Shown one piece after another: positions 30,660 to 61,352 of a stretch of DNA of 64,000 bases. The DNA is taken from contig CAWIFZ010000015.1 in the NCBI GenBank assembly GCA_963835415.1, positions 67,582 to 131,581 of the forward strand. The letters run 5' to 3'. Origin of the DNA: an uncultured Actinomycetes bacterium (lineage in GTDB: Bacteria; Actinomycetota; UBA4738; HRBIN12). Both the position numbers and the translations under genes were made by a program. How positions within the stretch are numbered: position 1 is the first letter of the stretch; every line of letters begins with the position of its first letter. The notes under the pieces were generated by a model. The model was not told the DNA's origin, ran no database searches, and saw only the letters and a list, made by a program, of their open reading frames with translations.

Positions 30660-31976
30660 ATGCAGATGGCCGTCTCGCTCGGCTTCCACATCGTGTTCGC
30701 GGCGCTCGGCATCGGCCTGCCGCTGCTGCTGGTGTTCACCGAGTTCCTGGCGATCCGCCGCGACGACGCCGTCTGGATGGCGCTCACGCGCCGATGGTCG
30801 AAGGCGCTCGGGATCCTGGTCGCGATCGGCGCGGTCTCGGGAACGGTCCTGTCCTTCGCGCTCGGGCTGTTCTGGCCCGGGCTGATGGGGCGATGGGGCG
30901 CGGTGATCGGGCTGCCGTTCGCACTCGAGGCGTTCGCGTTCTTCATCGAGGCGATCTTCATCGGGATCTACCTCTACGGATGGGACCGGCTCACGCCGTG
31001 GGCGCACTGGTTCACCGGCTGGCCGGTCGTGCTCGGGGGAGCGGCGAGCGCATGGTTCGTGGTGACCGCCAACTCGTGGATGCAATCACCGGTCGGGTTC
31101 GAGCTCTCGGCGAACGGCAAGGTGGTCGACGTACAGCCGATCCAGGCGATGCTGAACCCATCGACGCCGGTCATGACCACGCACATGATCCTGGCGGGCT
31201 ACATGGCGACCGGGCTCACGGTCGCGTCGATCTACGCGGTCGGCATGTTGAAGGGGCGGCGCGACCTCTATCACCGGCGCGCGCTCGCGGTGGGGCTCAC
31301 GTTCGGGCTGGTGCTTGCGCCCGTGCAGGTCTTCGTCGGCGATCTGGCCGCCAAGCTCGTGGCCGAGCGACAGCCGATGAAGCTCGCGGCGCTGGAGGGG
31401 CTCTGGGACACCACGGCCGACGCCCCGCTCACGATCGGTGGGATCCCGCTCCCCGGCCGTGAGGAGACGATCCTGGGCATCCGGATCCCGGGCGCGCTGT
31501 CGTGGCTGGCGTTCGGCCACTCGGACGCGGTCGTGAAGGGATTGAAGGAGGTGCCGCCGCAGGATCGGCCGAACACGATCCTGGTGCACCTGGCGTTCCA
31601 GGCGATGGTGGCGATCGGGTTCGCGTTCCTCGGGCTCGGTCTGTGGTCGCTGATCGGGTGGTGGCGACGCGGCCGTCGGGCGTTGCCCGACGGCCGCTGG
31701 TTCCTGCGCGCCGCAGCCGTCGCGGGCCCCGCCGCGTTCATCGCGCTCGAGGCGGGATGGATCGTCACGGAGGTCGGGCGCCAGCCGTGGATCGTCTACG
31801 GCCAGATGCGCACGGCCGACGCCGTGACGACGCGCGGCGGCATCGTCTGGTGGCTGCTCGCGACCGTGGGCACCTATCTCCTGCTGGGCGCGGCATGCTC
31901 GTGGCTCCTGATCAAGCTGGCAGGCAAGCCTCGGGGCGTGGAGATGACGGAGGATGCGGCCGAGGAGACGAGGTGA
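30660..31976 (+). CDS. cydA: Cytochrome bd ubiquinol oxidase subunit I
   Basis: MQMAVSLGFHIVFAALGIGLP...GWIVTEVGRQPW. The conserved residues LTSLEAAR lie in frame upstream of the ATG with no start codon, so the true start may be GTG 30617 via a frameshift. Confidence 0.85.
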   Translation: MQMAVSLGFHIVFAALGIGLPLLLVFTEFLAIRRDDAVWMALTRRWSKALGILVAIGAVSGTVLSFALGLFWPGLMGRWGAVIGLPFALEAFAFFIEAIFIGIYLYGWDRLTPWAHWFTGWPVVLGGAASAWFVVTANSWMQSPVGFELSANGKVVDVQPIQAMLNPSTPVMTTHMILAGYMATGLTVASIYAVGMLKGRRDLYHRRALAVGLTFGLVLAPVQVFVGDLAAKLVAERQPMKLAALEGLWDTTADAPLTIGGIPLPGREETILGIRIPGALSWLAFGHSDAVVKGLKEVPPQDRPNTILVHLAFQAMVAIGFAFLGLGLWSLIGWWRRGRRALPDGRWFLRAAAVAGPAAFIALEAGWIVTEVGRQPWIVYGQMRTADAVTTRGGIVWWLLATVGTYLLLGAACSWLLIKLAGKPRGVEMTEDAAEETR

Positions 31977-43759: not shown

Positions 43760-44758
43760 CTAGCGACGGTAGGGGATCGCGGAGAATCGCTCGAGTTTCG
43801 CGAACTGATGCTGCGCCTCGACGTATCGGACCGTTCCCGACTGCGACCGCATCACCATCGAATATGTGGTCGCTCCGTCGGGCCAGTACTTCACGCCGCG
43901 CAACAACGACCCGTCGGTGACGCCGGTCGCCGCGAAGAACACCTCACGCCCCGAGACGAGGTCGTCGGTCCTCAACACCTGGTCCAGGTCGAAACCTTGA
44001 TCGAGCAGCGTGCCACGCTCGTCGTCGCTCCGGGGCCAGAGCCGTCCCTGGATCGCACCGCCCAGGCACTTGAGCGCCGCCGCGGCGATGACGCCTTCCG
44101 GCGTGCCACCGATCCCCAGGAGCAGATCGACACCCGATCGCGGGGTGGCCGCCGCGATGGCGCCCGCCACGTCACCGTCCGTGATCAAGAACACGCGCGC
44201 GCCCACCTCGCGGACCTCGGTGATCAAGCCCGCGTGGCGTTCGCGATCGAGGATCGTCACGGTGATCTCCTCGGGACGGACGCCCTTCGCCTTCGCGACG
44301 CGCCGGACGTTCTCGGCGGCCGACGCCGTGATGTCGATGGCGTCGGCCGCCTCGGGTCCCGCCGCGACCTTCTCCATGTAGACGGCGGCGCCGGGGAAGA
44401 ACATCGAGCCACGCTCGGCGAGCGCGATCACGGCGAGCGCGTTGGGCTGTCCGAGGGCGGTGAGTCGCGTCCCGTCGACGGGATCCACCGCGACATCCAC
44501 GCCGGGCCCCGTGCCGTCGCCCACCTCCTCGCCGTTGTACAGCATGGGCGCCTCGTCCTTCTCGCCCTCGCCGATCACGACGGTGCCGTGCATCGACACG
44601 GTGTCGATCATCAGCCGCATCGCGTCGACCGCCGCGCCGTCCGCGGCGATCTTGTCGCCGTGACCGATCCAGCGGCCGGCGGCGAGCGCGGCGGCCTCGG
44701 TGACCCGCACCAGCTCCAGAGCGAGGTTGCGGTCGGGTCGCGGCGTCTCAGTCGTCAC
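43760..44758 (-). CDS. glpX: Class II fructose-1,6-bisphosphatase
   Basis: [18 protein letters not shown] and GGTPEG are GlpX motifs; intact. Confidence 0.9.
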
Positions 44759-44795: not shown

Positions 44796-45798
44796 TCATG
44801 GTACGCCGCCGGGGCGATGGATCAGCCCTCGCTCCGCGTACCAGGCGAGGGTCCGAGCGACGGTCTCCTCGATCGGCCGATACGTCAGTCCCAGCTCCCT
44901 CGTGGCCTTGGAGCCGTCGTACCGGTGCCCGTGCAGCAGCGTCCGTGCGAGCTCGGCGCAGAACGGGAGGTCCCGGCGCGTCAGCCGGGCCGCCCAGCCG
45001 GCCGCAGCTCCCGCAGCGGGCGCCACCGCGCGAGGCACGCGGACGACATGACGGGGTCGCCCCACGGCCGCCTGCACGAGCGCGATCGCCCGGGTCGTGG
45101 TCAGGCTCGCGCCGCTCAAGAGGTACCGCTCGCCGGCGCGGCCGCGTGTCTCGGCGGCGAGATGTCCCTTCGTGCAGTCGTCGACGTCGACGATCGACAG
45201 GAACGTCTCGACGACCACGGGGAGCCGCGCGTTCACGAGCCCGATGAGCAACCGGGCGGAGCCCTCGGTCCGGCCGGGGCCTTGGACGGACGACGGGTTC
45301 ACACAGACGACGTCCACACCCAGCTCGGTGCCGAGCTCGAGCACGCGTCGCTCGGCCAGGAACTTCGATCGTTCGTACGCCGAGAGGAACGTGCCTCGGT
45401 GCGGGGCGTCCTCGGTGCCGACGACGCCGCGTGGCTCGCCGATCGTCGCGGCGGATGACGTGAACACCACGCGCGCGACGCCCGCCCGGGACGCGGCCCG
45501 GACCACGGAGGCGGACCCGTCGACGTTCGTGCGGAACATCGCGTTCGGGTCGCGCAGGCACATCGCGTTGACGCCCGCCACGTGGAACACCGTGTCGCAT
45601 CCGTGCATGCCCCCCACCAGCACGCCTTCGTCGAACAGGTCACCCGGGACGGGTACACCTCCGTCGGCCTGGACCGAGGCCGCCGCGTCGGTGGACCGTG
45701 CGAGCGCGCGGACCTCCCGGCCATCCTTGACCAGTCCGCGCAGGAGCGCGCCGCCGACGAAGCCGCTCGCCGCCGGTGACGAACGCCGGTCCGCTCAC
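44796..45798 (-). pseudogene. NAD-dependent epimerase/dehydratase (extended SDR), frameshifted near the N-terminus
   Basis: GTG 45798 VSGPAFVTGG is in the first frame. SGFVGGALLRGLVKDGREVRAL... and YERSK (YxxxK) are in the next. Junction near 45768, inside the Rossmann GxxGxxG motif. Confidence 0.8.
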
Positions 45799-45804
45799 CC
45801 GCGG

Positions 45805-46392
45805 CTATCGCTCACGCCGACCGATCAGCACGCCGCCGAACCGAGCGAAGTACTCGACCGCCGATCCCACGGTCACCAGCGCCGCCGCGATCATGGCGTA
45901 CTCGTCGGGATAGAGCGGCCCCCACGGCGATGACGTGCGGATGATGGCCAAGAAGATCGCGAGGAACTGCACGTTCGCCTTGAGCTTGCCCCATATCGAC
46001 GGCTTCACGACCGTGCCGTCCGTGGCGCTCACCGCGCCTCGCAGTCCCATGATCAACACTTCGCGTCCGATGATGATGAACGCGATCCAGGCGGAGGCGC
46101 GTCCGACGGACACCAGCGCGACCAGCACGCCGGAGACGAGCAGCTTGTCGGCGGTCGTGTCCAGGAACGTGCCGAGGATCGTGGTCTGCTTCCATCGCCG
46201 GGCCAGACGACCGTCGAAGAAATCGGTGGCCGCCGCGATCGCGAAGAGCACGGCGGCGGTGACGTACGCGTACTGCACGCGATCGCCCACGAGCACCAGC
46301 GCCATCACGACGGGCGTGAGCGCGACGCGGAGGTACGTGATGCCTTTCAGGAATGCAGCGGCTCGCTCGTCCGGAGTCTTCACCACGCTCAC
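45805..46392 (-). CDS. pgsA: CDP-alcohol phosphatidyltransferase (PgsA-like)
   Basis: DFFDGRLARRWKQTTILGTFLDTTADK matches D-x2-DG-x2-AR...G-x3-D-x3-D. Confidence 0.85.
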   Translation of the reverse strand: MSVVKTPDERAAAFLKGITYLRVALTPVVMALVLVGDRVQYAYVTAAVLFAIAAATDFFDGRLARRWKQTTILGTFLDTTADKLLVSGVLVALVSVGRASAWIAFIIIGREVLIMGLRGAVSATDGTVVKPSIWGKLKANVQFLAIFLAIIRTSSPWGPLYPDEYAMIAAALVTVGSAVEYFARFGGVLIGRRER

Positions 46393-46411: not shown

Positions 46412-48888
46412 TCAGCCGTTCCGGGCGCTCCGCAAGAGCTCGCGCACCTCGCCGGCGCTCGCGCATGCCAGCGCGTCGTCGGCGAGCGCGCGAGCGACCG
46501 TGAGGTCCACGGTGCGCACGGCTCGCTTCACGAGCGCGATCGACGGGGCTCCCATCGAGAGCTCACGGACGCCGAGACCGAGCAAGAGCGGCGTGGCGTC
46601 GGCGTCGCCGGCGAGCTCACCACAGACGCCGACCCATCGTCCACGAGCGTCGGCCGCCTCCACGGTCATGCGGATCGAGCGCAGGACCGCCGGGTGGACG
46701 GCGTCGGCGAGCGCGCCGACGCGCACGTTCCCGCGATCCGCGGCCAACGTGTACTGCGTGAGGTCGTTCGTGCCGATCGAGAAGAAGTCCGCATCGTCGG
46801 CGAGTCGATCCGCGAGCAACGCGGCCGATGGGATCTCGACCATGACGCCCACCTCGAGCGTCGGTGGGCGTTCTCCGGCGCCGCGCAGGAGGTCCATCGC
46901 CTCCCGGAGCTCGTCCACGGTGGCGACCATCGGGAACATCACGCGGAGCGGGTGGTCGGCTGCGACCCGCAGGATCGATCGCAGCTGTGCCTGCAGGAGC
47001 TCGGGTCGCTGCAAGCCGAGCCGGATGCCGCGCACCCCGAGGAACGGATTCGCTTCGCTCGGCTGGTCGAGGTAGGGGATGGGCTTATCGGCGCCGGCGT
47101 CGAGCGTGCGGATCACCAACGGACGTCCGCCCAACGCCTCGGCCGTCTCGCGATACGCGGCCTCCTGCTCCCGCTCGTCCGGCATCGCCGACCGCCCCAT
47201 GAACAGGAACTCCGTGCGGAACAGTCCGACGCCGTCGGCGCCTGCCGCGACCGCGCGCGCCGCGTCGACCGGCGAACCGATGTTCGCCGCCACCTCGATC
47301 GTCACACCGTCGATCGTGCGAGCGGGCTCGAGGGCCGAGCGCCTGCGCCTCCCGGACGACGGCGTCGCGCGCATCGCGCGCCGCGGTGAGCTCCGACACG
47401 ACGGACGGATCCGGATCCACGTGGACCACGCCGGTCGACCCGTCCAGCGCGATGGGCGTCCCCTCGGGGACGGTGAGCACGCTGCCGCCGGCCCCGACGA
47501 CCGCGGGGATCCCCGACGAGCGCGCGAGCACCGCCGCGTGCGACGTCGGTCCGCCCGCGGCGGTGACGATGCCGAGCGCCATCGACGGGTCCAGACCCAC
47601 GGTGTCGGCGGGCGTCAGATCCCGCGCGATCACGACGCCCGGCGCCTCGAGCTCTGGTCCCGGGAGTGCGATGCGCAGGAGCCGTGCGAGTACCTGCCGT
47701 CCCACGCTCCGGAGATCGGCCGCTCTCGCCCGCAGGTACTCGTCATCGAGCGCGTCCCACTGCTCGGCCGTCCGTTCGATCACGTCGTGCCAGGCCTGGG
47801 CCGCCGACCGGTTCCCGTTCCGCGATCGCTTCTCGGGTCGGCCCGAGGAGCGCGTCGTCCCTCAGGAACAACAGGTGGGCGTCGAAGATCTCGGCCTCGT
47901 CCGCGCTCGCCATCCCGGCGACGTGCTCGCGCTGACGGACGATCTCATCGCGGACGTCCGTGAGCGCGGCGTCGAACGCGGCGTGCTCCGCATCGACGCC
48001 CGATCCCGGCCCCTCCGGGATCGGCAGGTCGGGCGTCCGGAACCGTCTGGCGGGCCCGATCGCGATCCCGGGCGAGGCGGGGTGACCGCGTACCACCCCC
48101 GTGACGTCCGGGGAGGCGAGCGACGCCTGGGCGGCCCGCGCCGCGTTCGGCTCCGGTCGGTCGTCGAAGTCGCGCTCGGCCAAGGCGTGGATCGCGGCCA
48201 GTGCCTGGGATGCTTGCGGGCCGCTGGCTGCGACCTCGACCTCGTGCCCCTGCGTCGCCCCGAGCATCGCCACACCGTTCAGGCTTGCCGCATCCGCGGG
48301 GCCTCTCCCGTTGGTCAGATCGCGGATCGTGATGCGGGCATCGAACGACGACGCCGTCTGCACGAAGCGTGCGGCCGGTCGGGCATGCAGTCCGTGCAAC
48401 GCGCGCACCGTCAGCCGGATCGTCTCCTCGCCGCCCGTCGGTTGCTCGCCGGACGCTGTGACCTCGGGTGCGTCTCCCGTATCTCCCAGGTGTGCGATCT
48501 TCCCGGCCAGTCCGCCGCGCGCCTCGTGCGCGACGCGATCGAGCGACGCTCCCATCTTCGCCGTGACGGCGGCTGCCACCGCGCCCTCCACGATCGGTGC
48601 CTCGCAGAGCAGCACGTTCGCCCGCCGCTCCTCCGGCATCAGGTCGATCGCCATCTCGGCCGAGAGCACCGCGCTGCCCAGGTCCATCAAGACGAGGACC
48701 CCGTCGTCGGACCACGCTCTGTCGATCGCTCCCATCACCAGGACGGCGTCGGTGCCGATCGGATGATCCGGCATGTCCAGGCCGCCCGCCGTCTCGAGCT
48801 TGACGTCGGGGCCACCCATCTCGCGGGCGAGCTGTGCGACGCCCTCCGCGATCAGATGGCTGTGCGAGACGATGACGATCCCGACCAT
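46412..48888 (-). pseudogene. dhaM: Multidomain PTS protein DhaM-like: EIIA(Man)-HPr-complete Enzyme I fusion, two frameshifts
   Basis: IVIVSHSHLIAEG (EIIA-Man-like) and LHGLHARPAARFV (HPr-like) lie in frame 1. GGPTSHAAVLARSSGIPAVVG (EI His domain) lies in frame 2. LFRTEFLFM, IRTLDAGADK, NPFLGVRGIR, FFSIGTNDLTQYTLAADR and CGELAGD (EI PEP barrel) lie in frame 3. Junctions near 47817 and 47339. Confidence 0.85.
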
Positions 48889-48901: not shown

Positions 48902-49282
48902 TCAGGCTCTCGACGCCAGGACGCCGATGAGTGCCAGGCCGTAGGCGATCGTCACGGCGCCCAGGATCACGACACCTCGCGACACCAGCCGCTTCATGCG
49001 CTCCGAGAGCCCGAAGTCGAGGAGGACGGAGCGCAGACCCGCCATCGCGTGGATCGTGACCACGATCAGGAACGTGCACTCGATGACGAGGATGACCGGG
49101 TTGGCGATGTAGTCGAGGACCTGCGCATACGTCCGGAGCCCGCCGATCTCATCGACCACGAAATGGTGCGCCACCATGTGCACGGTGACGAGCACCAACA
49201 GCGCGACCCCGGAGTACGTGGTGACCTTCCACCGCCGCGAGCGGTGGTCATCGACGGGTTCGGTCGGGGCGCGTACCGCCAT
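48902..49282 (-). CDS. SdhD-like hydrophobic membrane anchor subunit
   Basis: 126 aa, 3 TM helices, His-containing VTVHMVAHHF and VVTIHAMAGLR. Its start shares one base with the upstream stop (TGATG). Confidence 0.65.
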   Translation of the reverse strand: MAVRAPTEPVDDHRSRRWKVTTYSGVALLVLVTVHMVAHHFVVDEIGGLRTYAQVLDYIANPVILVIECTFLIVVTIHAMAGLRSVLLDFGLSERMKRLVSRGVVILGAVTIAYGLALIGVLASRA

Positions 49283-49722
49283 CAACCGCTCCCCACGATG
49301 TGGAGCGTCGCGCCCAGCAAGAGGATCGCGCCGATGATCATGAGCGACCAGAAGAGCGCCTTCTGATGATCCACCGCGATCCCGGTGCCGATCAGCGCGA
49401 CACGGAGCCCGTTCAGGCCGTGGAACAACAGACCGAAGAGCAGCAGCACGTCGAGGCCGAGGAACACGGGCGTGGTCGCCAGCTCGAGGAAGCCGTGCCA
49501 CGCGCTCTCCCCACCGAGGAGCATCGAGAGCACCGCGAGATGGAGATAGAGGTAGAACGTGAGACCCAACGCCGTGAACCGGTTGAGGGAGAACGCCCAG
49601 TGACCGGTGCTCCGCCCTCGCACGTCGAACCATGCGGTGGCTCCGGGCGACTTCCGCAGCACCGGTCCGCGCGCTTCGCGCGCGGACCGGATCACGTCGA
49701 GGTCGTCGTCCCGCCGGCTCAC
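49282..49722 (-). CDS. SdhC-like cytochrome b membrane subunit
   Basis: ~146 aa, 3 TM helices, HWAFSLNRFTALGL, YLYLHLAV, LFHGLNGLR. GTGA overlap with the Fe-S subunit stop. Confidence 0.65.
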   Translation of the reverse strand: MSRRDDDLDVIRSAREARGPVLRKSPGATAWFDVRGRSTGHWAFSLNRFTALGLTFYLYLHLAVLSMLLGGESAWHGFLELATTPVFLGLDVLLLFGLLFHGLNGLRVALIGTGIAVDHQKALFWSLMIIGAILLLGATLHIVGSG

Positions 49723-50420
49723 GAGCCGTCCCCTCCGCTCGTCAGCGTCCGCCGGAGCTGCATGATCCGCTGCGCCGGACGCACGTTGGACGGACATGCC
49801 TCCGTGCACTCGAACGCCGCGTGGCATCGCCACGCGGCGTTGTCTGCGTCCGCCCACCTCAGGATCGGGCCGACGTCGGCGCCGCGAGGTTCCTCCAACA
49901 TCCGCTGGGCATACGCGAGCGCGGCCGGCCCGACGTACGTGTCGTCGGTCGCCACGACGGGGCACGCGGACAGGCACAGGCCGCACTCGATGCAGTCCTC
50001 GAACCGCTCATACGCGTCGATCCCGTCCGGCATCTCCGCCGATGACGGGAAGTCGCTCGTGCGCGTCGCCGGATGCGGCGCCGGGAAGCGATCGGCGAAC
50101 GACGTCATGTCGACGACCAGGTCGGTCATCACGGGGAAGTTGGCCATCGGTTCCACGGTCACCCGCCCCGGGTCGAGGTCCGCGAGGCGCGTGACGCACG
50201 CGAGGCCCTCGCGCCCGTTCACGCGGACGCCGCAGGTCCCGCACGAGGCGTGGAGGCACGAATGACGGATGGCGAGCGAGGGATCGCGATGGATCCGGAT
50301 CCACCGAAGAGCGTCGAGGACGGTGCTCGTCGGTTCGACCTCGGCCTCGAAGACGTCGAACCGGGACGGACCGCTCTCGCGTGAGAACCGGAACACACGG
50401 AACGCCCGCGTGGTCGTCAT
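49719..50420 (-). CDS. Succinate dehydrogenase/fumarate reductase-type iron-sulfur subunit (SdhB/FrdB-like)
   Basis: 2Fe-2S CLHASCGTCGVRVNGREGLAC, 4Fe-4S CIECGLCLSACP and third cluster CHAAFECTEACP. ATGA overlap with the flavoprotein stop. Confidence 0.85.
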   Translation of the reverse strand: MTTTRAFRVFRFSRESGPSRFDVFEAEVEPTSTVLDALRWIRIHRDPSLAIRHSCLHASCGTCGVRVNGREGLACVTRLADLDPGRVTVEPMANFPVMTDLVVDMTSFADRFPAPHPATRTSDFPSSAEMPDGIDAYERFEDCIECGLCLSACPVVATDDTYVGPAALAYAQRMLEEPRGADVGPILRWADADNAAWRCHAAFECTEACPSNVRPAQRIMQLRRTLTSGGDGS

Positions 50421-51598
50421 GCGGCGAAGTACGCGATGTGCGGAAGCAGGACCGTCTCGCGCGTCCGACAGACCTCGTCGACCCCGAGCTTGCGGCAGAC
50501 CACGTCGGCGCACACCTCCGCCATCCCGCGCAACGTGGTGCCTTTGCCTCCGGTGATCGTGACGAACCCCTCGGCGCCGCCCTCCGCCGCGTGGTCGATC
50601 GTCTTGAACGTCCGGGACAGTTCGCGGCCGGAGTCGGCCTCGCCGCGCGAGCCGATCAGTGGACGCGCGGCCGACCATGCGGCCCGGTGCGGGGCAGTGG
50701 CCACCGCCGGGATCAGTTTGGAGCCTTCGGTGACCATCCGCTCGACATGATCCTGGGGAACGCCCAGGTCCTCGGGGTCCTCCACGACCCACGAGCTGGT
50801 GCCGACGATCGAGAGCCCGCGCTGCGGCACGACGATGTCGCCGTCGCCGGACGCATGGAGGCGGTTGATCACCATGTTGCAGAGCCGTCCACGCAACGCC
50901 AGCATCACGCCGGGGGAGGGTCTGATCGGCACGTCGACGCCGGCCATCAACGCCACCTTCTCGGACCACGGCCCCGTCGCGTTCACCGTCAGGTCCGCGT
51001 GGATCTCGGCGTCGCGCCCGGTGACGTGATCGTGGATCGCTGCGCCGCTCACCACGCCGTCATGCATCAGCAGACCCGTGACCTCCATGTAGTTCAGTAG
51101 CGACGCTCCGTTCCGCTTCGCGGTGGCGAAGAATCGCAGCGGCATCCGCATGGCGTCCATCGTGGCGTCCGGCACGCGGACGGCCGCTTTCATGTCCGGG
51201 TTGAGCATCGGCTCGAGCCGCAGGGCCTGCTCCGGCGTGAGCTGCTCGGCCGGGATGTCTGATGCGGCGCACCCCTCGAGGAAGCCCGGAAGGTACGCCA
51301 TGTCCTCGTCTGTGATCGCGACGAACAGTCCGTCGTTCTCCTCGAACGAGCCCGGCGCGATCTTCCTGAGGAGGCGGTTCTCCTCGATGCACTCCACGGC
51401 GGACTCATGGTCGTTGACCGCGTAACGCGCGCCACTGTGCAACAGGCCGTGGTGGCGACCGGTCGTGCCGGATGTGAACTCTCCGCGCTCGACGAGCGTC
51501 ACGCGCAGGCCGCGCAACGCGAGATCGTGCGCCAACGCGCCCCCGGTTCCGCCGCCGCCGATGATCAGCACATGTGCGTCGTGTGCGGCCCTCGTCAT
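50417..51598 (-). CDS. glpA: FAD-dependent glycerol-3-phosphate dehydrogenase, GlpA-like but lacking the C-terminal BFD-type 2Fe-2S domain
   Basis: VLIIGGGGTGGALAHDLALRG, GRHHGLLHSGARYAV and FVTITGGKGTTLRGMAE are collinear with the first ~395 aa of E. coli GlpA as I remember it. The ORF stops at 393 aa. Confidence 0.8.
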   Translation of the reverse strand: MTRAAHDAHVLIIGGGGTGGALAHDLALRGLRVTLVERGEFTSGTTGRHHGLLHSGARYAVNDHESAVECIEENRLLRKIAPGSFEENDGLFVAITDEDMAYLPGFLEGCAASDIPAEQLTPEQALRLEPMLNPDMKAAVRVPDATMDAMRMPLRFFATAKRNGASLLNYMEVTGLLMHDGVVSGAAIHDHVTGRDAEIHADLTVNATGPWSEKVALMAGVDVPIRPSPGVMLALRGRLCNMVINRLHASGDGDIVVPQRGLSIVGTSSWVVEDPEDLGVPQDHVERMVTEGSKLIPAVATAPHRAAWSAARPLIGSRGEADSGRELSRTFKTIDHAAEGGAEGFVTITGGKGTTLRGMAEVCADVVCRKLGVDEVCRTRETVLLPHIAYFAA

Positions 51599-51737: not shown

Positions 51738-53231
51738 TCAGTCCACCCAGTCGAACGTCTTGGTGACGGCCTTCTTCCACTGCGCGTATTCCTTCGCGAC
51801 GGTGGCGCTGTCCATCGAAGGCTTCCACTCGGCGTCCTTGCCCCAGTTGGAGCGCAGGTCGTCGACGTTCTTCCAGAAACCGACCGCGAGCCCGGCCGCG
51901 TACGCGGCGCCGAGCGCCGTCGTTTCGGCCACCTTCGGGCGGATCACCGGCACCTGCAGACAGTCCGCCTGGAACTGCATCAGGAGGTCGTTGTAGACCA
52001 TGCCGCCGTCCACCTTGAGCTCCTTCAGCTTGACGCCGGAGTCGGCCTCCATGGCGTCGAGGACCTCGCGGGTCTGCCATGCGGTCGCCTCGAGGGTCGC
52101 CCGGGCGATGTGGCCCTTGTTGACGTAGCGGGTCATGCCGACGATCGCGCCGCGGGCGTCGCCGCGCCAGTACGGCGCGAACAGGCCCGAGAACGCCGGC
52201 ACGAAGTACGTCCCGCCGTTGTCCTCGACCGTGGCGGCGAGCGCCTCGACGTCCTCGGACTTCTCGATCAAGCCCAGGTTGTCGCGGAGCCACTGCACCA
52301 GCGCGCCGGTGATGGCGATCGAGCCCTCGAGCGCATAGACCACCGGTGCATCGCCGAGCTTCCAACACACGGTCGTCAGCAGACCGCTCTTCGACGGCAC
52401 CAGGTCGGTGCCGGTGTTCAGGATCATGAAGCAGCCGGTGCCGTACGTGTTCTTCGCGTCGCCGACGTCGTAGGCGGCCTGACCGAACGTGGCGGCCTGT
52501 TGGTCACCCAGGTCGCCCGCGACCGAGATGCCTGCGAGCGTTCCCTTCGCCTCGCCGTACACCTCCGACGACGACCGGATCTGGGGCAGCATCGACTTGG
52601 GGACCCCGATCGCCGAGCACAGGTCGTCGTCCCAATCGAGGGTCTCCAGGTTCATCAGCATCGTGCGGGAGGCGTTGGTGACGTCGGTCACGTGCACCCC
52701 GCCGTCGGTCCCGCCCGTGAGGTTCCAGATGCACCAGGTGTCCATGTTGCCGAACACGAGGTCGCCGGCTTCGGCCTTGGCTCGCGCGCCGTCCACGTTG
52801 TCGAGGATCCAGCGGACCTTGGTGCCGGAGAAGTACGTGGCGAGTGGAAGACCGGTCTTCTCACGGAACCGGTTCTGATCGCCGTCCGCCAGGGAATCGA
52901 CGATGTCCTGCTGGCGGGTGTCCTGCCACACGAGCGCGTTGTAGACGGGCTCGCCCGTGTTGCGGTCCCAGACGACCGCCGTCTCACGCTGGTTCGTGAT
53001 GCCGACGGCTGCCAGGTCGGTCGCGGCGATGCCGGCCTTCTTCAGCGCGCCGGCGATCACCTCTTCCGACCGTGTCCAGACCTCCTTCGGATCGTGCTCG
53101 ACCCATCCCGGCTTCGGGAAGATCTGCTCGTGCTCCTTCTGATCCACCGCGACCACCGCGCCGCCGTGATCGAAGATCATGAACCGCGTGCTCGTGGTGC
53201 CCTGGTCCAGGGCACCTACGTAGTCCGCCAT
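51738..53231 (-). CDS. glpK: Glycerol kinase
   Basis: [24 protein letters not shown]-type motif ([12 protein letters not shown]), full length. ATG 53231 is preceded by GGAAGGAGG. Confidence 0.95.
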
Positions 53232-53262
53232 GTGGGGCCTCCTTCCGGTCCGTTCGTTGGCG

Positions 53263-53907
53263 CTATGCGTCACTCCACGTCTCGGCGACGGTCTTCAACA
53301 ACAGGAACGACGACGTGGCGCCGGGGTCTTGATGCCCGGCGCTGCGCTCACCCAGGTAGCTCGCGCGTCCCTTGCGGGCCACGAGTGGGGTCGTGCCTTC
53401 CATGCCCGCCTCGCCGGCCGCGGCCGACCGCCGGAGCGCATCCGCGAAGGATGCGCCCTCGCCGATCGCCGCGGCGAACGCGTCGCGCGCGGGCACGAGC
53501 GCGTCGATCATCGTCTTGTCCTGGAGTTCGGCCTTACCTCGTGCCTGCACACCCTGGACGGCGGCCGCGAGTGCCGCCGCCCAGTCTTCCGCCGTGATCT
53601 CGGTCTTGCCCGCCGTGGCGGTGCCGAGCTGGAGGAAGAGCGTCCCGTACAACGGACCGCCCGCCCCGCCGACCGTCGAGACCAACGTCATGCCGACGGT
53701 CTTGAACAACGTGCCGACGTCGCCTGGAGGGAGGGCGTCGACCTTGGCGAGCACGGCCTGGAAGCCGCGATCCATGTTGATGCCGTGGTCCGCGTCGCCG
53801 ATCGCGGAGTCGAGCTCCGTCAGGTACGCCTTGTTCTCCGCGATCGTCGCCGCGAACACCCGGACCATCCGGACCACGTCGTCGTACGGGACGCTCAATC
53901 GTGCCAC
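53263..53907 (-). CDS. dhaL: Dihydroxyacetone kinase ADP-binding subunit DhaL
   Basis: [25 protein letters not shown] and [19 protein letters not shown]. Start is GTG 53907 or TTG 53898. Confidence 0.9.
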
Positions 53908-53936
53908 CCCCTCGGTCGTCTGGGACACGGTCGGGG

Positions 53937-54944
53937 TCAGACCCCCCAACGCAGTCCAGGCGTCTTCACGGGTGCGTCCCAGAGCTTCGTCAACTCGTCG
54001 TTCAGCTTCAGCAGGGTGATGGAGCATCCCGCCATCTCGAGCGACGTGATGTAGGAGCCGACGAGGTTGCGCGTGATCGTGACCCCCTTCCCCTTGAGGA
54101 ACTTGTTGACCTCGTTGAAGACCAGGTAGAGCTCGATCAGCGGAGTACCGCCCATGCCGTTGACGAATGCGAGCACGTTGTCGCCGGATGAGAACGGGAG
54201 GTCCTCGACCACGGCGGTCGCCATCTGCTCGACGATGTCGTGCGCGGGCTTCAGCTTCATCCGCTCGCGACCCGGCTCACCATGGATGCCGATCCCGATC
54301 TCCATCTCGTCCTCGCCGAGCTCGAACGTCGGCTTGCCGGCCGCCGGAACCGTGCACGAGGTGAGCGCCATACCCATCGTGCGGGCGTTCGCGTTCACCT
54401 CACGACAGATGTCGGCGACCTCCTTCAGGGGCCGCTTCTCCTCCGCCGCCGCCCCGGCGATCTTCTCCAACAGCACGGTGGCGCCGACACCTCGCCGGCC
54501 CGCCGTGTAGAGGCTGTCCTGCACGGCGACGTCGTCGTCGACCAGGACCGATTCCACCTCCGTGCCCTCGGCACGGCAGAGGTCCGCAGCCATCTCGAAG
54601 TTCATGACGTCGCCGGTGTAGTTCTTCACGATGTGGATCACGCCGGCGCCGCCGTCGACGGCCTTCGTCGCCGCCTCCATCTGATCGGGCGTCGGCGACG
54701 TGAACACCTCGCCGGGACACGCCGCATCCAGCATGCCCATGCCGACGAAGCCGCCGTGCATCGGCTCGTGCCCGGAGCCACCACCGGATACCAGGGCGAC
54801 CTTGCCCTGCACCGGCGCGTCCTTGCGCACGATCGTGTACGGGTCGTACGTCACGTTGATCAGGTCCGAGTGCGCTGCCTCCATGCCCTGCAGCGCTTCA
54901 CGGACCACGTCCGCCGGATCGTTGATGAGTTTCTTCATCGTCAT
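53937..54944 (-). CDS. dhaK: Dihydroxyacetone kinase DHA-binding subunit DhaK
   Basis: [28 protein letters not shown] and GIHGEPG. Confidence 0.95.
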
Positions 54945-54974: not shown

Positions 54975-55745
54975 TCAGAACGTCAGATCGAACGCGGCCT
55001 TGGCGAGGAACGCACCGAGCACGCCGCCGATCAGCGGGCCGACCACGGGGATCCACGAGTACGCCCAGTCGGATCCACCCTTGCCGGGGATCGGCAGGAT
55101 CGCGTGGATGATCCGCGGGCCGAGGTCACGGGCCGGGTTGATCGCGTAGCCCGTCGGTCCACCGAGCGACATGCCGATACCGAGGACCAGCAGGCCGACC
55201 GGCAGTGCACCGGTGGCGAGGGTGCCACCGATCGTCATCGAGCCGGCCATACCGGAGACGTGGATCAGGAACCCGCCGCCGAGCTTGATCGCGATGGCCA
55301 CGACGCCGAACACCAGCAACGCGGTGCCGATGATCTCCGTGATGAGGTTGGCCGCGGTGTTGCGGATCGCCGGTCCGGTCGAGAACACGGCGAGCTTCAG
55401 GCCGGGGTCTTCGGTCTCGGACCAGTGGGCGAGGTAGGCGAGGTAGACGAGGATCGCGCCGAGGAACGCGCCCACGAACTGCCCGGCGATCAACGTCGGC
55501 ACGTCACCCCAGTCCACCGCGCCGATCGACGCGAGACCGACCGTCACGGCCGGGTTCAGCTGCGCGACGCCGCCGGTCACCGCGAGGCTGGTGACCACGC
55601 CGAGGAAGACACCCATCGCCCACGCCCATGTGATCACGATCCAGCCTGAGTTCTGTGCCTTCGACTTGTTCAACAACACCCCGGCCACGACGCCGTCGCC
55701 GACCAGGATCAGCACGCACGTGCCGACCACCTCTCCAAGGAACAT
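54975..55745 (-). CDS. glpF: MIP-family glycerol uptake facilitator
   Basis: Two NPA boxes (LNPAVT, INPARD). ATG 55745 has GGGAGG upstream. An alternative GTG lies at 55805. Confidence 0.9.
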   Translation of the reverse strand: MFLGEVVGTCVLILVGDGVVAGVLLNKSKAQNSGWIVITWAWAMGVFLGVVTSLAVTGGVAQLNPAVTVGLASIGAVDWGDVPTLIAGQFVGAFLGAILVYLAYLAHWSETEDPGLKLAVFSTGPAIRNTAANLITEIIGTALLVFGVVAIAIKLGGGFLIHVSGMAGSMTIGGTLATGALPVGLLVLGIGMSLGGPTGYAINPARDLGPRIIHAILPIPGKGGSDWAYSWIPVVGPLIGGVLGAFLAKAAFDLTF

Positions 55746-55840
55746 CTCAGCAACCACCTCCCGATGTGCTGCGGCGCCCCCGGATATGGGCGCTCCCGTG
55801 GTCACATAGCCAAGGCCGTTCGTATCCGAAAGTCAAAGTG

Positions 55841-55907
55841 AGATCTGCCGCGATCAGCCCGACATCGCCGTGTTATGTTCGGCATCGTCGAACGTTTCCG
55901 CAGATCT
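55841..55907. promoter_or_regulatory. 8-bp inverted repeat AGATCTGC / GCAGATCT flanking a GTTCG-N7-CGAAC dyad (candidate operator region)
   Basis: AGATCTGC at 55841-55848 and GCAGATCT at 55900-55907, with GTTCGGCATCGTCGAAC between them. Located in the comparatively AT-richer divergent region between glpF and the dhaL paralogue. Confidence 0.25.
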
Positions 55908-55983
55908 GGGGAAATCGCCGACCCCGCGCCGAGGAGGGCTTCGGCTTGACAGGCTCGGGCGTGCCGACGGAAGGTGCCATCGA

Positions 55984-56676
55984 GTGAGCGGTCCGACCAT
56001 TCGCCGGGGAGGTGTCGGCTCCACGTCGTCGGGGACATTCGTCCTCGATGCGGAGTTCGTGCTCCGGTGGGTCGTCGAAGCGGCCGCCAGGATCGACGAG
56101 CAGCGCGACTTCCTCACCCAGCTCGACGCCGCGATCGGCGACGCCGACCACGGGGTGAACATGCAACGGGGGTTCACCGCCGCCGTGGCGACCGTGCAAT
56201 CGTCGTCCGATCGATCGCCGGGATCGCTCCTGGAGGAGGTCGGGAAGACCCTCATCTACCGGGTGGGCGGCGCCGCCGGCCCGCTCTACGGCACGGGCTT
56301 CCGCCAGATCGGCGTGACGATCTCCGAGGCGGTGACACCCGACGGTGAGGTGCTCCTGTCAGCGCTCCGGGCCGGTCTCGAGGGGATCCAGGCGCTGGGC
56401 GCGGCAGCGGCCGGCGACAAGACGATGGTCGATGCGTGGGAGCCTGCGGTCGCCGCGTTCGAACGGACGTTGCAGGCCGGAGGCGAGACGGAGGAAGCGG
56501 CGCGGAACGCCGCCGAGGCGGCCAACGCGGGTGTCGAGGCGACCCTGCCGTTGCAGGCGCGGAAGGGACGGGCGTCGTACCTGGGTTCGCGGAGCATCGG
56601 ACATCAAGATCCCGGCGCGACGTCGACCGCGATCATCTTCGGGGCGCTCGAACGAGCCCTCCGTCGCCGACGGTGA
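55984..56676 (+). CDS. DAK2-domain protein, DhaL paralogue without an adjacent DhaK partner
   Basis: [25 protein letters not shown] and [19 protein letters not shown]. Start GTG 55984 is uncertain. Confidence 0.8.
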   Translation: MSGPTIRRGGVGSTSSGTFVLDAEFVLRWVVEAAARIDEQRDFLTQLDAAIGDADHGVNMQRGFTAAVATVQSSSDRSPGSLLEEVGKTLIYRVGGAAGPLYGTGFRQIGVTISEAVTPDGEVLLSALRAGLEGIQALGAAAAGDKTMVDAWEPAVAAFERTLQAGGETEEAARNAAEAANAGVEATLPLQARKGRASYLGSRSIGHQDPGATSTAIIFGALERALRRRR

Positions 56677-59392: not shown

Positions 59393-60067
59393 ATGGCGGG
59401 GTTGGAGATGGTGTTCTTCGACATCGGCGGCGTGATGTACGACGACACGATCTACGCCCGGGCCATGCACACGGCGTTGCGCGCCCTGGGCGCGAGCTTC
59501 ACCGACCGGGAGTTCGACGACGTGTATCGCGAGGCGCGCGCCGCGCAATCCGGTTCGTTCCGCGGGTTGTTGGCGCGTCGGTTCCTCGGACCCGACGCCG
59601 ACATGGCCGCGTTGGAGGCCGAGGCATCCAAGCACTGGGCATACCCGCCCGAGGCGCTGCACGACGACGTCCGTCCGTGCTTGGCCTCACTCGCCGGGAG
59701 GTATCGCATGGGGATCATCGCGAACCAACCGAGCGCGGTGAAGGACGCGATCCGTCGTGACGGTCTGGACGGCTTCTTCGAGGTGTGGGGCGTCTCGGAC
59801 GACGTCGGGTTGGAGAAGCCCGATCCCGCGTTGTTCACACACGTCCTGCATGAAGCGGGCGTGGACCCGTCCTCGAGCGCGATGATCGGCGACCGGTTGG
59901 ACTACGACGTGCGCCCCGCGAAAGCGGCGGGGATGCGGGCGGTGTGGGTGTTGCGGGGTGAGGCGCCGGACGATCCGACGCCGGAACAGCTGGCCGAGGC
60001 GGACGCCGCGGTCCACGACCTGGCCGAGCTCCCACCGGCGCTGGAGGCGCTGGAGATGCGTCGATGA
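59393..60067 (+). CDS. HAD-superfamily hydrolase (subfamily IA-like)
   Basis: Motif I VFFDIGGVM, motif III EKPD and motif IV IGDRLDYD. Confidence 0.8.
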   Translation: MAGLEMVFFDIGGVMYDDTIYARAMHTALRALGASFTDREFDDVYREARAAQSGSFRGLLARRFLGPDADMAALEAEASKHWAYPPEALHDDVRPCLASLAGRYRMGIIANQPSAVKDAIRRDGLDGFFEVWGVSDDVGLEKPDPALFTHVLHEAGVDPSSSAMIGDRLDYDVRPAKAAGMRAVWVLRGEAPDDPTPEQLAEADAAVHDLAELPPALEALEMRR

Positions 60068-61352
60068 CGCCGAAGCGGATCCTCATCGTGGGCGGGGGGT
60101 TCGCCGGCATGTACGCCGCGATGGAGATGCGGCGTCTCGCGGATGCCGGTCACCAGGTGACGCTCGTCTCGGCCGAGAACTTCATGCAGTACCAGCCGTT
60201 CCTGCCCGAGGTCGCGTCCGGCACGATCGATCCGCGCGCGATCGTGGTGCCGCTCCGTCCGTTGCTCAAGCGGGCCACGATCGAGGTCGGCGAGGTCACG
60301 TCGATCGACCACGATGCGCGCAACGTCGACGTGCGGATCCCGGACGGCGGGACCGTGCGGCTGGAGTACGACGTGCTCGTCGTGACCGCGGGTTCCTGGT
60401 CGCGCGTGCTCCCCATCCCCGGGCTGGCCGAGCACGGGATCGGGTTCACGACGGTGCAAGAGGCCATCTACCTGCGGAACCACGTGCTCTCGCGGCTGGA
60501 TGTCGCCACGCAGACGCAGGATCCGAGCTGCGTCGCGCGGCGCTGACGTTCGTGTTCGTGGGAGCCGGATACGCCGGGGTGGAGGCGTTGGGGGAGCTGG
60601 AGGACCTGGCCCGCGACGCGATGCGCAACTACCCGAAGCTGCGTCCTTCCGAGATGCGGTGGGTCCTGGTCGAGGCGGCCGGCCGGATCCTGCCCGAGCT
60701 TCCGCCGGACCTCGCGGCGTACGCGCAGGCACAGCTGGCGGAGCGCAACATCGACGTGCTGTTGCACACCCGGCTCGACTCCGCGGAGGAGGGCACGATC
60801 CGGTTGTCGGACGGGCAGGCGTTCGCGGCCGACACGCTGGTCTGGACAGCGGGGGTGAAGCCGTCGCCGCTGGCCGGCGGCGCGTTGCCGGTCGACGAGC
60901 GCGGACGGGTCGTCGTGGACGACCATCTGCGCGTGGTGGGCGTGCCGGACGCGTGGGCCGCGGGCGACATCGCGGCCGTCCCGGACCGCACCACCGGCGG
61001 TCTGGCGCCCCCCACCGCGCAACACGCGATGCGGGAGGGGCGCCGCCTCGGCCGGAACGTCACCGCGACGATCCTGGGAGGGGAGCTCGCGCCGTTCGTC
61101 TGGAAGAACGTCGGCGGCGTCTGCTCGCTCGGGCGGTACAAGGGTGTCGCGAACGTGTTCGGCATCAACGTCAAAGGGTTCCTGGGGTGGTTCCTGCACC
61201 GCTCGTACCACCTGTGGGCGATGCCGACGATCGGACGGCGCGTGCGGATCGCGATCGACTGGACGATCGCGCTGCTGTTCCCGCGCGACATCACGCAGTT
61301 CGGCTCGTTCGAGGATCCGCGCGGTCCGTTCCGCCGCGCGGCGGGTTCGTAG
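60064..61352 (+). pseudogene. ndh: Type II NADH:quinone oxidoreductase (NDH-2), frameshifted (-1)
   Basis: ATGA overlap with the HAD stop. ILIVGGGFAGM is in the first frame; the second dinucleotide fold FVFVGAGYAGVE and AAGDIA are in the next. CCGAG at ~60525 where CCGGAG would keep the frame. Confidence 0.9.

Follow-up and report, generated by a model that had tools for sequence, protein, structure and literature searches.

In a 64,000-nucleotide stretch of DNA from an uncultured soil Actinomycetes bacterium (contig CAWIFZ010000015.1), here called the window, four consecutive genes next to the glycerol kinase gene glpK probably encode one membrane-bound respiratory glycerol-3-phosphate (G3P):menaquinone oxidoreductase of the complex II type, in which a truncated GlpA flavoprotein replaces SdhA and is joined by an SdhB-like iron-sulfur subunit and by SdhC-like and SdhD-like anchors. 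This reading is supported by comparative genomics, from which we infer the physical interaction of the subunits and their activity. The window would therewith contain a bacterial G3P dehydrogenase of the GlpA-SdhBCD type, a kind that was predicted earlier in archaea, is biochemically uncharacterized and, judging from the genomes compared here, is common in bacteria.

The flavoprotein encoded by the first gene of the cassette was compared with hidden Markov models (HMMs) and matched the GlpA equivalog model TIGR03377 with an E value of 8e-132, over profile positions 1-377 of 530 only, the model NF008313 over positions 5-386 of 548, and the Pfam family DAO with an E value of 1e-47. No match to Fer2_BFD (PF04324) was obtained for the flavoprotein, whose sequence breaks off at the point at which canonical GlpA goes on into its BFD [2Fe-2S] domain; the original prediction, according to which the protein is collinear with the flavin adenine dinucleotide (FAD) domain of GlpA and ends before the BFD domain, was thus confirmed. 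The total TIGR03377 score of 440.5 bits lies under the curated cutoff of 552.8 because the last third of the profile is missing. The next-best models were those for GlpO and GlpD (E values of 1e-27 to 1e-17), and models for DAO-family enzymes with substrates other than G3P scored weaker (1e-17 or worse). The GlpD models NF008899 and NF009906 gave 82.6 and 62.9 bits, below their cutoffs of 360 and 352, and a domain search of the flavoprotein gave no match to the C-terminal alpha-helical domain of the GlpD type.

The PDB set that was searched held no GlpA structure, and the nearest PDB sequences were those of GlpD from B. halodurans (3DA1) and of GlpO from Streptococcus. An AlphaFold2 model of the flavoprotein, obtained with a 34-sequence alignment, had a predicted local distance difference test score (pLDDT) of 92.5 and a predicted template modeling score (pTM) of 0.91, and its best structural matches were again GlpD and GlpO, with TM-scores (query) of 0.81-0.84. 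The grouping of the flavoprotein with GlpA and other G3P enzymes, which the original prediction had proposed as a check, was therefore obtained in HMM, PDB sequence and fold comparisons alike. The only poorly defined internal loop of the model comprises residues 319-328 (pLDDT below 50; about positions 50615-50644), holds the invariant R325, adjoins the invariant R329, and may serve as a lid over the substrate or in contacting a partner.

In a mixed alignment of truncated and full-length GlpAs, residues H54, G56, R58, Y59, R312, R325, R329, H336, K352, R357 and E361 were invariant, and the motifs HxGxRY (HSGARY), RPL and GGK, which we take to line the G3P site in GlpO and GlpD structures, were the same, without exception, in the truncated clade as in canonical GlpAs. 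The flavoprotein is 39-44% identical to GlpA from Bacteroides and Gallibacterium. In a neighbor-joining tree the SdhB-linked flavoproteins cluster apart from canonical full-length GlpAs; the tree is crude (BLOSUM distances, midpoint root, without support values) and was used for that grouping only. From the GlpA HMM match, the G3P enzymes as nearest relatives, the invariant motifs and the upstream glpK, G3P is most likely the substrate, and the gene product is predicted to be an FAD-binding, G3P-oxidizing subunit with DAO fold, without the BFD-like [2Fe-2S] domain.

The SdhB-like protein contains the domains Fer2_3 (7.5e-27) and Fer4_8 (7.6e-12) and scores 181.6 bits against TIGR00384, the SdhB/FrdB subfamily model with a cutoff of 88, but stays under every SdhB and FrdB equivalog cutoff. 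Its best PDB matches were FrdB from E. coli (3e-40), followed by SdhB of Sdh2 from M. smegmatis (1.4e-35). As had been claimed for this SdhB/FrdB-type protein, all three cysteine clusters are present: 11 of 11 cysteines (C55, C60, C63, C75, C143, C146, C149, C153, C199, C205 and C209) were invariant among 13 diverse homologues, down to 42% identity, and their patterns Cx4Cx2Cx11C, CxxCxxCxxxCP and Cx5Cx3CP are the motifs of a [2Fe-2S], a [4Fe-4S] and a [3Fe-4S] cluster, respectively. The protein has CPVVATDDTYVGPAAL where ubiquinone-type SdhB presumably has CPSYWWN.

The SdhC-like and SdhD-like proteins both pass the Pfam model Sdh_cyt (PF01127; 2.5e-08 and 1.8e-12, respectively) and have three hydrophobic segments each, which are predicted to be transmembrane segments, in line with the two histidine-bearing anchors that had been described from the DNA. 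The best PDB match of the SdhC-like protein was chain C of 6LUM (3.1e-09), the structure of M. smegmatis Sdh2, and the SdhD-like protein aligns with chains C and D. Invariant residues were H61 and H101 of the SdhC-like protein (51 homologues) and H35, H40, H78 and D89 of the SdhD-like protein (49 homologues). In HMMER alignments, H61 and H101 correspond to His C47 and His C87 of 6LUM, and H35 and H78 correspond to His D65 and His D107. The axial ligands in M. smegmatis Sdh2 are His D107 and His C87 for heme bP and His D65 and His C47 for heme bD (PMC7447783). Because the four axial histidines are invariant in about 50 homologues, the anchor is predicted to bind two b hemes, and it is probably a two-subunit, diheme cytochrome b of type A architecture.

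Linkage of the four genes was analyzed in both directions. In the forward test, 185,579 species genomes were scanned with the flavoprotein, which yielded 80 loci in which the window proteins were mapped by tblastn and open reading frames (ORFs) were then delimited. At every locus with a GlpA of at least 51% identity the short form was found, clean complete ORFs having 387-399 amino acids (about 50 genomes), and wherever the contig extends far enough an SdhB-like gene lies directly downstream of it (about 54 genome loci). Clean SdhC-like and SdhD-like ORFs were present at 45 forward loci, with overlaps mostly of 4 or 1 nucleotides. These loci came from metagenome-assembled genomes (MAGs) of Actinomycetota, from Solirubrobacterales and from Chloroflexota (Anaerolineae, Ardenticatenaceae), and include a cultured carrier, Bellilinea caldifistulae GOMI-1 (L049). 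At loci with 39-44% identity (Bacteroides, Alistipes, Gallibacterium, Histophilus and others) GlpA was canonical with 536-560 amino acids; SdhB-, SdhC- and SdhD-like genes were found at none of these loci in the forward scan, and several showed a GlpC-like Fer4 match about 1270 nucleotides downstream.

In the reverse test, metagenome contigs were searched with a profile of the SdhB-like protein and 80 loci with 48-97% identity were retrieved. A truncated GlpA was encoded directly upstream in 60 of the 61 loci with more than 400 nucleotides of upstream room, the 61st having a GlpA C-terminal remnant there, and an SdhC-like gene followed downstream in 68 of 69 loci with room. Altogether, more than 100 independent contigs from at least three phyla carry the cassette, and no SdhA-like gene adjoined it in the more than 100 related loci. 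The ratios of nonsynonymous to synonymous substitution rates (dN/dS) were 0.07-0.45 for the four cassette genes (0.07-0.19 for the truncated glpA), which indicates purifying selection on all of them. Given this recurrence and these ratios, the four-gene arrangement is not due to chance. The linkage of the cassette to glpK, the conservation of which the original prediction had asked about, was found in most Actinomycetota and Chloroflexota loci, and adjacency was seen in three phyla; the full order glpF-dhaKL-glpK-glpA'-sdhB'C'D'-dhaM is kept in Actinomycetota and Anaerolineae. At Solirubrobacterales loci the four-gene cassette stands alone, with glpK and dha genes absent within 6 kb, suggesting that the four genes travel as a unit.

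Some relatives combine the short GlpA with altered partners, and the fused forms among them serve as Rosetta-stone evidence for the proposed complex. In a Bacillota MAG (L083; JADBKO010000042.1, 3491-7935), glpK and a 409-amino-acid GlpA (49% identity) are accompanied by a single fusion protein of 571 amino acids, which consists of SdhB-like (42%), SdhC-like (44%) and SdhD-like (32%) parts in that order and keeps all four heme-ligand histidines. At another locus (L019; 5989-8786) the partner of a truncated GlpA with 79% identity is a protein of 513 amino acids, encoded next to it downstream, with Fer2_3, Fer4_8 and CCG domains, in which both Fer4 motifs read CxxCxxCxxxCP, as in an exit module of the TfrB/GlpC-like type; no SdhC or SdhD gene follows this SdhB-CCG fusion in L019, and L141 is probably of the same type. 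The exit modules therefore comprise the predicted diheme SdhCD anchor of the window, the SdhB-CCG fusion, the SdhB-SdhC-SdhD polypeptide of the Bacillota MAG and, elsewhere, SdhB alone, and the constant pair in this set of variants is the short GlpA and the N-terminal [2Fe-2S] module of SdhB, whereas the exit module varies.

Natural fusions of GlpA to SdhB were not found among the long GlpA representatives checked. In four proteins of 670-1000 amino acids (P0136, P0144, P0158 and P0237) the GlpA part is followed by a second flavoprotein region, of the FAD_binding_2 type, and many GlpA representatives of about 950-1000 amino acids (P0136, P0138, P0140, P0144 and others) carry such a region; the order in P0144 is DAO, BFD and FAD_binding_2-type region, and from their domains these long representatives are read as GlpA-GlpB fusions. 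In P0149, a cytidylyltransferase-like N-terminal domain is fused to GlpA. A short GlpA inside the canonical clade (L087) turned out to belong to a frameshifted glpABC and is not a genuine truncation, after which short proteins scattered among canonical GlpAs were left out as independent truncations. Short GlpA-like genes in L089 (730-1950), L090 (17-1237) and the contexts of P0159 and L081 are preceded by genes for conserved proteins of about 406 and about 460 amino acids; these proteins gave no Pfam match and may be another partner type.

Table 1. Genes of the glycerol operon that contains the four-gene cassette (positions in the window).
Feature	Positions	Strand	Remarks
glpF-like MIP channel (glycerol facilitator)	54975-55805	minus	MIP family, E 4e-41, below curated cutoff
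dhaK	53937-54944	minus	TIGR02363, 497 bits (above cutoff); dihydroxyacetone kinase subunit
dhaL	53263-54027	minus	TIGR02365, 242 bits (above cutoff); dihydroxyacetone kinase subunit
glpK, glycerol kinase	51738-53273	minus	TIGR01311, 728 bits (cutoff 590)
truncated glpA	50417-51598	minus	393 amino acids; TIGR03377 match
SdhB-like gene	49719-50420	minus	233 amino acids; ATG start overlaps glpA stop (ATGA)
SdhC-like gene	49282-49722	minus	146 amino acids; GTG start overlaps SdhB-like stop (GTGA)
SdhD-like gene	48902-49282	minus	126 amino acids; ATG start overlaps SdhC-like stop (TGATG)
dhaM-type EIIA-HPr-EI fusion gene	46412-48888	minus	EIIA-man, PTS-HPr, PEP-utilisers_N and PEP-utilizers_C domains

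The genes listed in Table 1 form an uninterrupted series glpF-dhaK-dhaL-glpK-cassette-dhaM, which opens with the glpF-like gene, the translation of which shows two NPA motifs. Dak1 and Dak2 domains were found in the dhaK and dhaL products. The position of the truncated glpA directly downstream of a true glpK was verified, the spacing being 139 nucleotides, and the overlaps between the cassette genes read on the minus strand exactly as had been stated (gccgcATGAcg, ctcGTGAgcc and ggtTGATGgcg); the four genes are translationally coupled. Also as predicted, neither glpB nor glpC was found downstream of the truncated glpA; the SdhD-like gene is followed, after 13 nucleotides, by the dhaM-type gene. 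No SdhA/FrdA gene is adjacent, the only flavoprotein of the cassette being the DAO-fold GlpA, and the SdhA/FrdA signature motif was absent from all ORFs of at least 150 amino acids in the window when searched with a regular expression, which is a weak test. The window has a G+C content of about 70%. A search of the operon for promoters and terminators was uninformative, with 0 promoter-like sites and 1 terminator-like site, below what is expected from shuffled sequence, and Rfam and tRNA scans of the window gave no matches.

The dhaM copy of the window is broken across frames -2, -3 and -1 when compared by tblastn with the intact orthologue of L003 (8754-11228), which is one unbroken ORF of 824 amino acids; the frame junctions lie near 47818-47837 and 47338-47340, and the copy is either a pseudogene or affected by assembly indels. 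A type II NADH dehydrogenase-like gene (59958-61352, plus strand) is also frameshifted, its Pyr_redox_2 match (positions 2-139) ending at 60546 and its C-terminal half running on in another frame, and an epimerase (44796-45623, minus strand) matches its Pfam model from position 63 onward only. A second DhaL paralogue (55870-56676, plus strand; TIGR02365, 220 bits) is divergent from glpF, and a copy with 44-52% identity (68% at one locus) is found at the corresponding place in most of the related loci from Actinomycetota. Other genes in the window encode cytochrome bd oxidase subunit I (30660-31976, plus strand), a glpX-type fructose-1,6-bisphosphatase (FBPase II; 43760-44758, minus strand), with the operon about 2.4 kb upstream and two genes between, and, near the operon, a CDP-alcohol phosphatidyltransferase (45805-46392, minus strand). 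These three genes fit a quinol-oxidizing chain and a flux from glycerol into gluconeogenesis and lipids.

In the proposed mechanism, glycerol would enter via GlpF and be phosphorylated by GlpK, and the truncated GlpA would oxidize the resulting G3P to dihydroxyacetone phosphate (DHAP) with its non-covalently bound FAD. This flavoprotein would need a partner because it ends at position 377 of the 530 of the GlpA profile, lacks the BFD domain and is not accompanied by glpB or glpC. The first acceptor of the two electrons would be the [2Fe-2S] cluster that the SdhB-like subunit holds in its N-terminal domain, a substitute for the BFD [2Fe-2S] domain lost from GlpA, and from there they would go on to the [4Fe-4S] and [3Fe-4S] clusters, the two-subunit heme b anchor (probably diheme) and finally menaquinone, so that SdhB'C'D' would jointly take over from GlpB and GlpC. 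Actinomycetota and Chloroflexota are menaquinone organisms, and menaquinone is the presumed acceptor because of these phyla, the likeness of the anchor to a diheme succinate:menaquinone enzyme and the presence of CPVVATDDTYVGPAAL at the site where we assume a different motif in ubiquinone-type SdhB. The potentials are about -190 mV for DHAP/G3P and about -74 mV for menaquinone/menaquinol, so that G3P oxidation by menaquinone is exergonic, unlike that of succinate. The cytochrome bd oxidase is a plausible downstream quinol oxidase. The operon appears to join two routes to DHAP, one by GlpK and the GlpA-type dehydrogenase and the other by DhaKLM, which depends on the phosphotransferase system.

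Several observations weigh against a four-subunit complex of this kind. Short GlpAs with 41-50% identity are accompanied by an SdhB-like gene only, without anchor genes, in L081/L082, L085 and L086, in the last of which the pair adjoins a glycerol kinase gene, and other short GlpAs (36-50% identity) lack an SdhB-like neighbor, as is the case for the distant truncated GlpA-like proteins P0124, P0146, P0159, P0224, P0228 and P0251. The flavoprotein can therefore work in other settings, and linkage to SdhB is a property of one clade and not of every short GlpA. The Solirubrobacterales cassettes are not beside glpK, and the substrate assignment there relies on sequence. The window holds several frameshifted genes, including dhaM of the same operon, so that expression of this copy is not assured. 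Contact between GlpA and the SdhB-like subunit is a prediction from the genes. Finally, a truncated GlpA-like enzyme from S. acidocaldarius reduces quinones alone in vitro (PMC11962113), and hence the iron-sulfur route may not be obligatory.

The last point leads to the alternative that survives best, although we regard it as unlikely, namely that the truncated GlpA is self-sufficient and reduces quinone directly, as do GlpD and the S. acidocaldarius enzyme, with the SdhBCD-like proteins serving as a docking platform or side branch. The G3P dehydrogenases of S. acidocaldarius reduce ubiquinone-Q1 without CoxG, which is a mere tether (PMC11962113), and stand-alone truncated GlpA-like genes occur. 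However, 11 invariant cluster cysteines and four invariant heme histidines would be superfluous in a mere tether, and the SdhB-like gene is kept where anchors are missing, which points to electron transfer and not to anchoring.

Less probable still is a real complex with another substrate, such as a small hydroxy or amino acid of a DAO-family enzyme or sn-glycerol-1-phosphate. Such an idea could draw on the sub-cutoff GlpA score and on the cassettes of Solirubrobacterales and L085 without adjacent glpK, but the shortfall is due to the missing C-terminal third, the aligned part matching GlpA strongly; GlpO and GlpD are the next-best families, ahead of enzymes for other substrates, the residues invariant with canonical GlpA fall in the HSGARY, RPL and GGK motifs, and glpK is adjacent in most loci. 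It is very improbable that the SdhBCD-like genes encode an ordinary succinate dehydrogenase or fumarate reductase with sdhA elsewhere and a coincidental or regulatory adjacency to glpA. The SdhB-like protein does pass the generic subfamily model and the anchors are closest to mycobacterial Sdh2, but the linkage is reciprocal and near-exclusive, start and stop codons overlap, the SdhB-like protein remains under the equivalog cutoffs, the weak regular-expression test revealed no SdhA signature in the window, and L019 and L083 keep glpA but differ in the architecture of its partners. The idea of an assembly artefact or a pseudogene, the short glpA being a frameshifted canonical one, to which the frameshifted genes of the window and the one frameshifted "truncated" database representative (L087) lend some color, is refuted by the conserved length of 387-399 amino acids, by the dN/dS values and by the SdhB-like coding sequence that is found downstream, where no BFD-, GlpB- or GlpC-like sequence occurs in any frame.

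If the four genes do encode a G3P:menaquinone oxidoreductase, the evolutionary picture could be broader, and we give slightly better than even chances to the view that the SdhB-type iron-sulfur subunit is a portable "plug" captured by a DAO-fold flavoprotein and that a distinct, bacterial-wide branch of G3P-oxidizing complex II exists, the exit module of which diversified in parallel with the classical complex II types. It is through G3P dehydrogenases that carbon from glycerol and lipids enters respiration, and the textbook enzymes are GlpD, GlpABC and GlpO. The combination of a GlpA head with the body of complex II would be a fourth architecture, employed by Actinomycetota and Chloroflexota that are abundant in soil and sludge, and would mean that the iron-sulfur and anchor module of complex II is able to serve a flavoprotein of unrelated fold. 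Should the anchor, with its two predicted hemes, lead electrons through the membrane to a menaquinone site on the distal side, the oxidation of G3P would be electrogenic; we know of no G3P dehydrogenase for which this has been described. Without this distinction, metabolic reconstructions would list the sdhBCD-like genes of the cassette under succinate dehydrogenase or fumarate reductase. Bellilinea caldifistulae GOMI-1 offers a cultured host for purification.

The same four parts have been described for Thermofilum-related archaea, in which glpA is followed by putative sdhB, sdhC and sdhD counterparts (Schmerling et al., Commun Biol 2025, PMC11962113). That synteny survey, which gives no biochemical data on this type, proposed a role of the Sdh-like proteins in electron transfer and membrane anchoring and shows in Fig. 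9b a "GlpA-SdhBCD (T. pendens)" complex for Thermofilum pendens (Tpen_1127 and the genes downstream of it) (PMC11962113); it is an independent proposal of the architecture inferred here. Full-text literature searches gave this paper and its preprint as the single source for the arrangement. The original prediction was therefore right in that no characterized enzyme has this composition, but it overstated the novelty, as the Thermofilum prediction had been published (PMC11962113). According to the published description, the Thermofilum GlpA likewise is almost without C-terminal extension; the window cassette comes from a bacterium of the Actinomycetota and has relatives in Chloroflexota and Bacillota, whereas Thermofilum is archaeal, and it sits in a glpF-dhaKL-glpK-...-dhaM operon. 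No Thermofilum was seen among the names of 30 representative clusters, in which Chloroflexota, Bacillota and Nitrososphaerota were present, and there were no archaeal names among the SdhB-linked representatives. In bacteria, canonical glpA was said to co-occur consistently with glpB and glpC (PMC11962113), and the bacterial cassettes correct the generalization that bacterial glpA always accompanies glpBC.

With GlpABC of the E. coli type the window enzyme has in common the GlpA-type catalytic FAD domain of DAO fold, the role after GlpK and the presumed acceptor menaquinone, whereas the BFD [2Fe-2S] domain, a GlpA score above the cutoff and adjacent glpB and glpC are lacking. The exit route for electrons would consist of three clusters of the SdhB type and a heme b anchor integral to the membrane, in contrast to the GlpB flavin and the 4Fe-4S/CCG protein GlpC of GlpABC. 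As to complex II, an SdhB/FrdB-type subunit and an SdhC/SdhD-type anchor with predicted bis-histidine heme ligation are present and a co-encoded SdhA/FrdA is not. The closest structure is M. smegmatis Sdh2 (6LUM), a diheme type-A succinate:menaquinone oxidoreductase, which is the best structure match for both anchors and the second for the iron-sulfur subunit; both systems have two three-transmembrane subunits, and histidines C47, C87, D65 and D107 of Sdh2 align with invariant histidines of the window proteins. Sdh2 has an SdhA of about 600 amino acids with covalent FAD and oxidizes succinate, whereas the window has a DAO-fold enzyme of 393 amino acids predicted to oxidize G3P, in a reaction with menaquinone that would be exergonic without assistance by the proton-motive force. 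To our knowledge, the only characterized truncated-GlpA system is GlpA-CoxG from S. acidocaldarius (Saci_2032/2031). As in the window, a truncated GlpA-type flavoprotein is encoded there beside glpK together with a membrane partner other than GlpBC, but this partner is the cofactor-less tether CoxG and the flavoprotein has a C-terminal tail of about 50 amino acids (PMC11962113), whereas the partner set of the window is predicted to carry three iron-sulfur clusters and heme.

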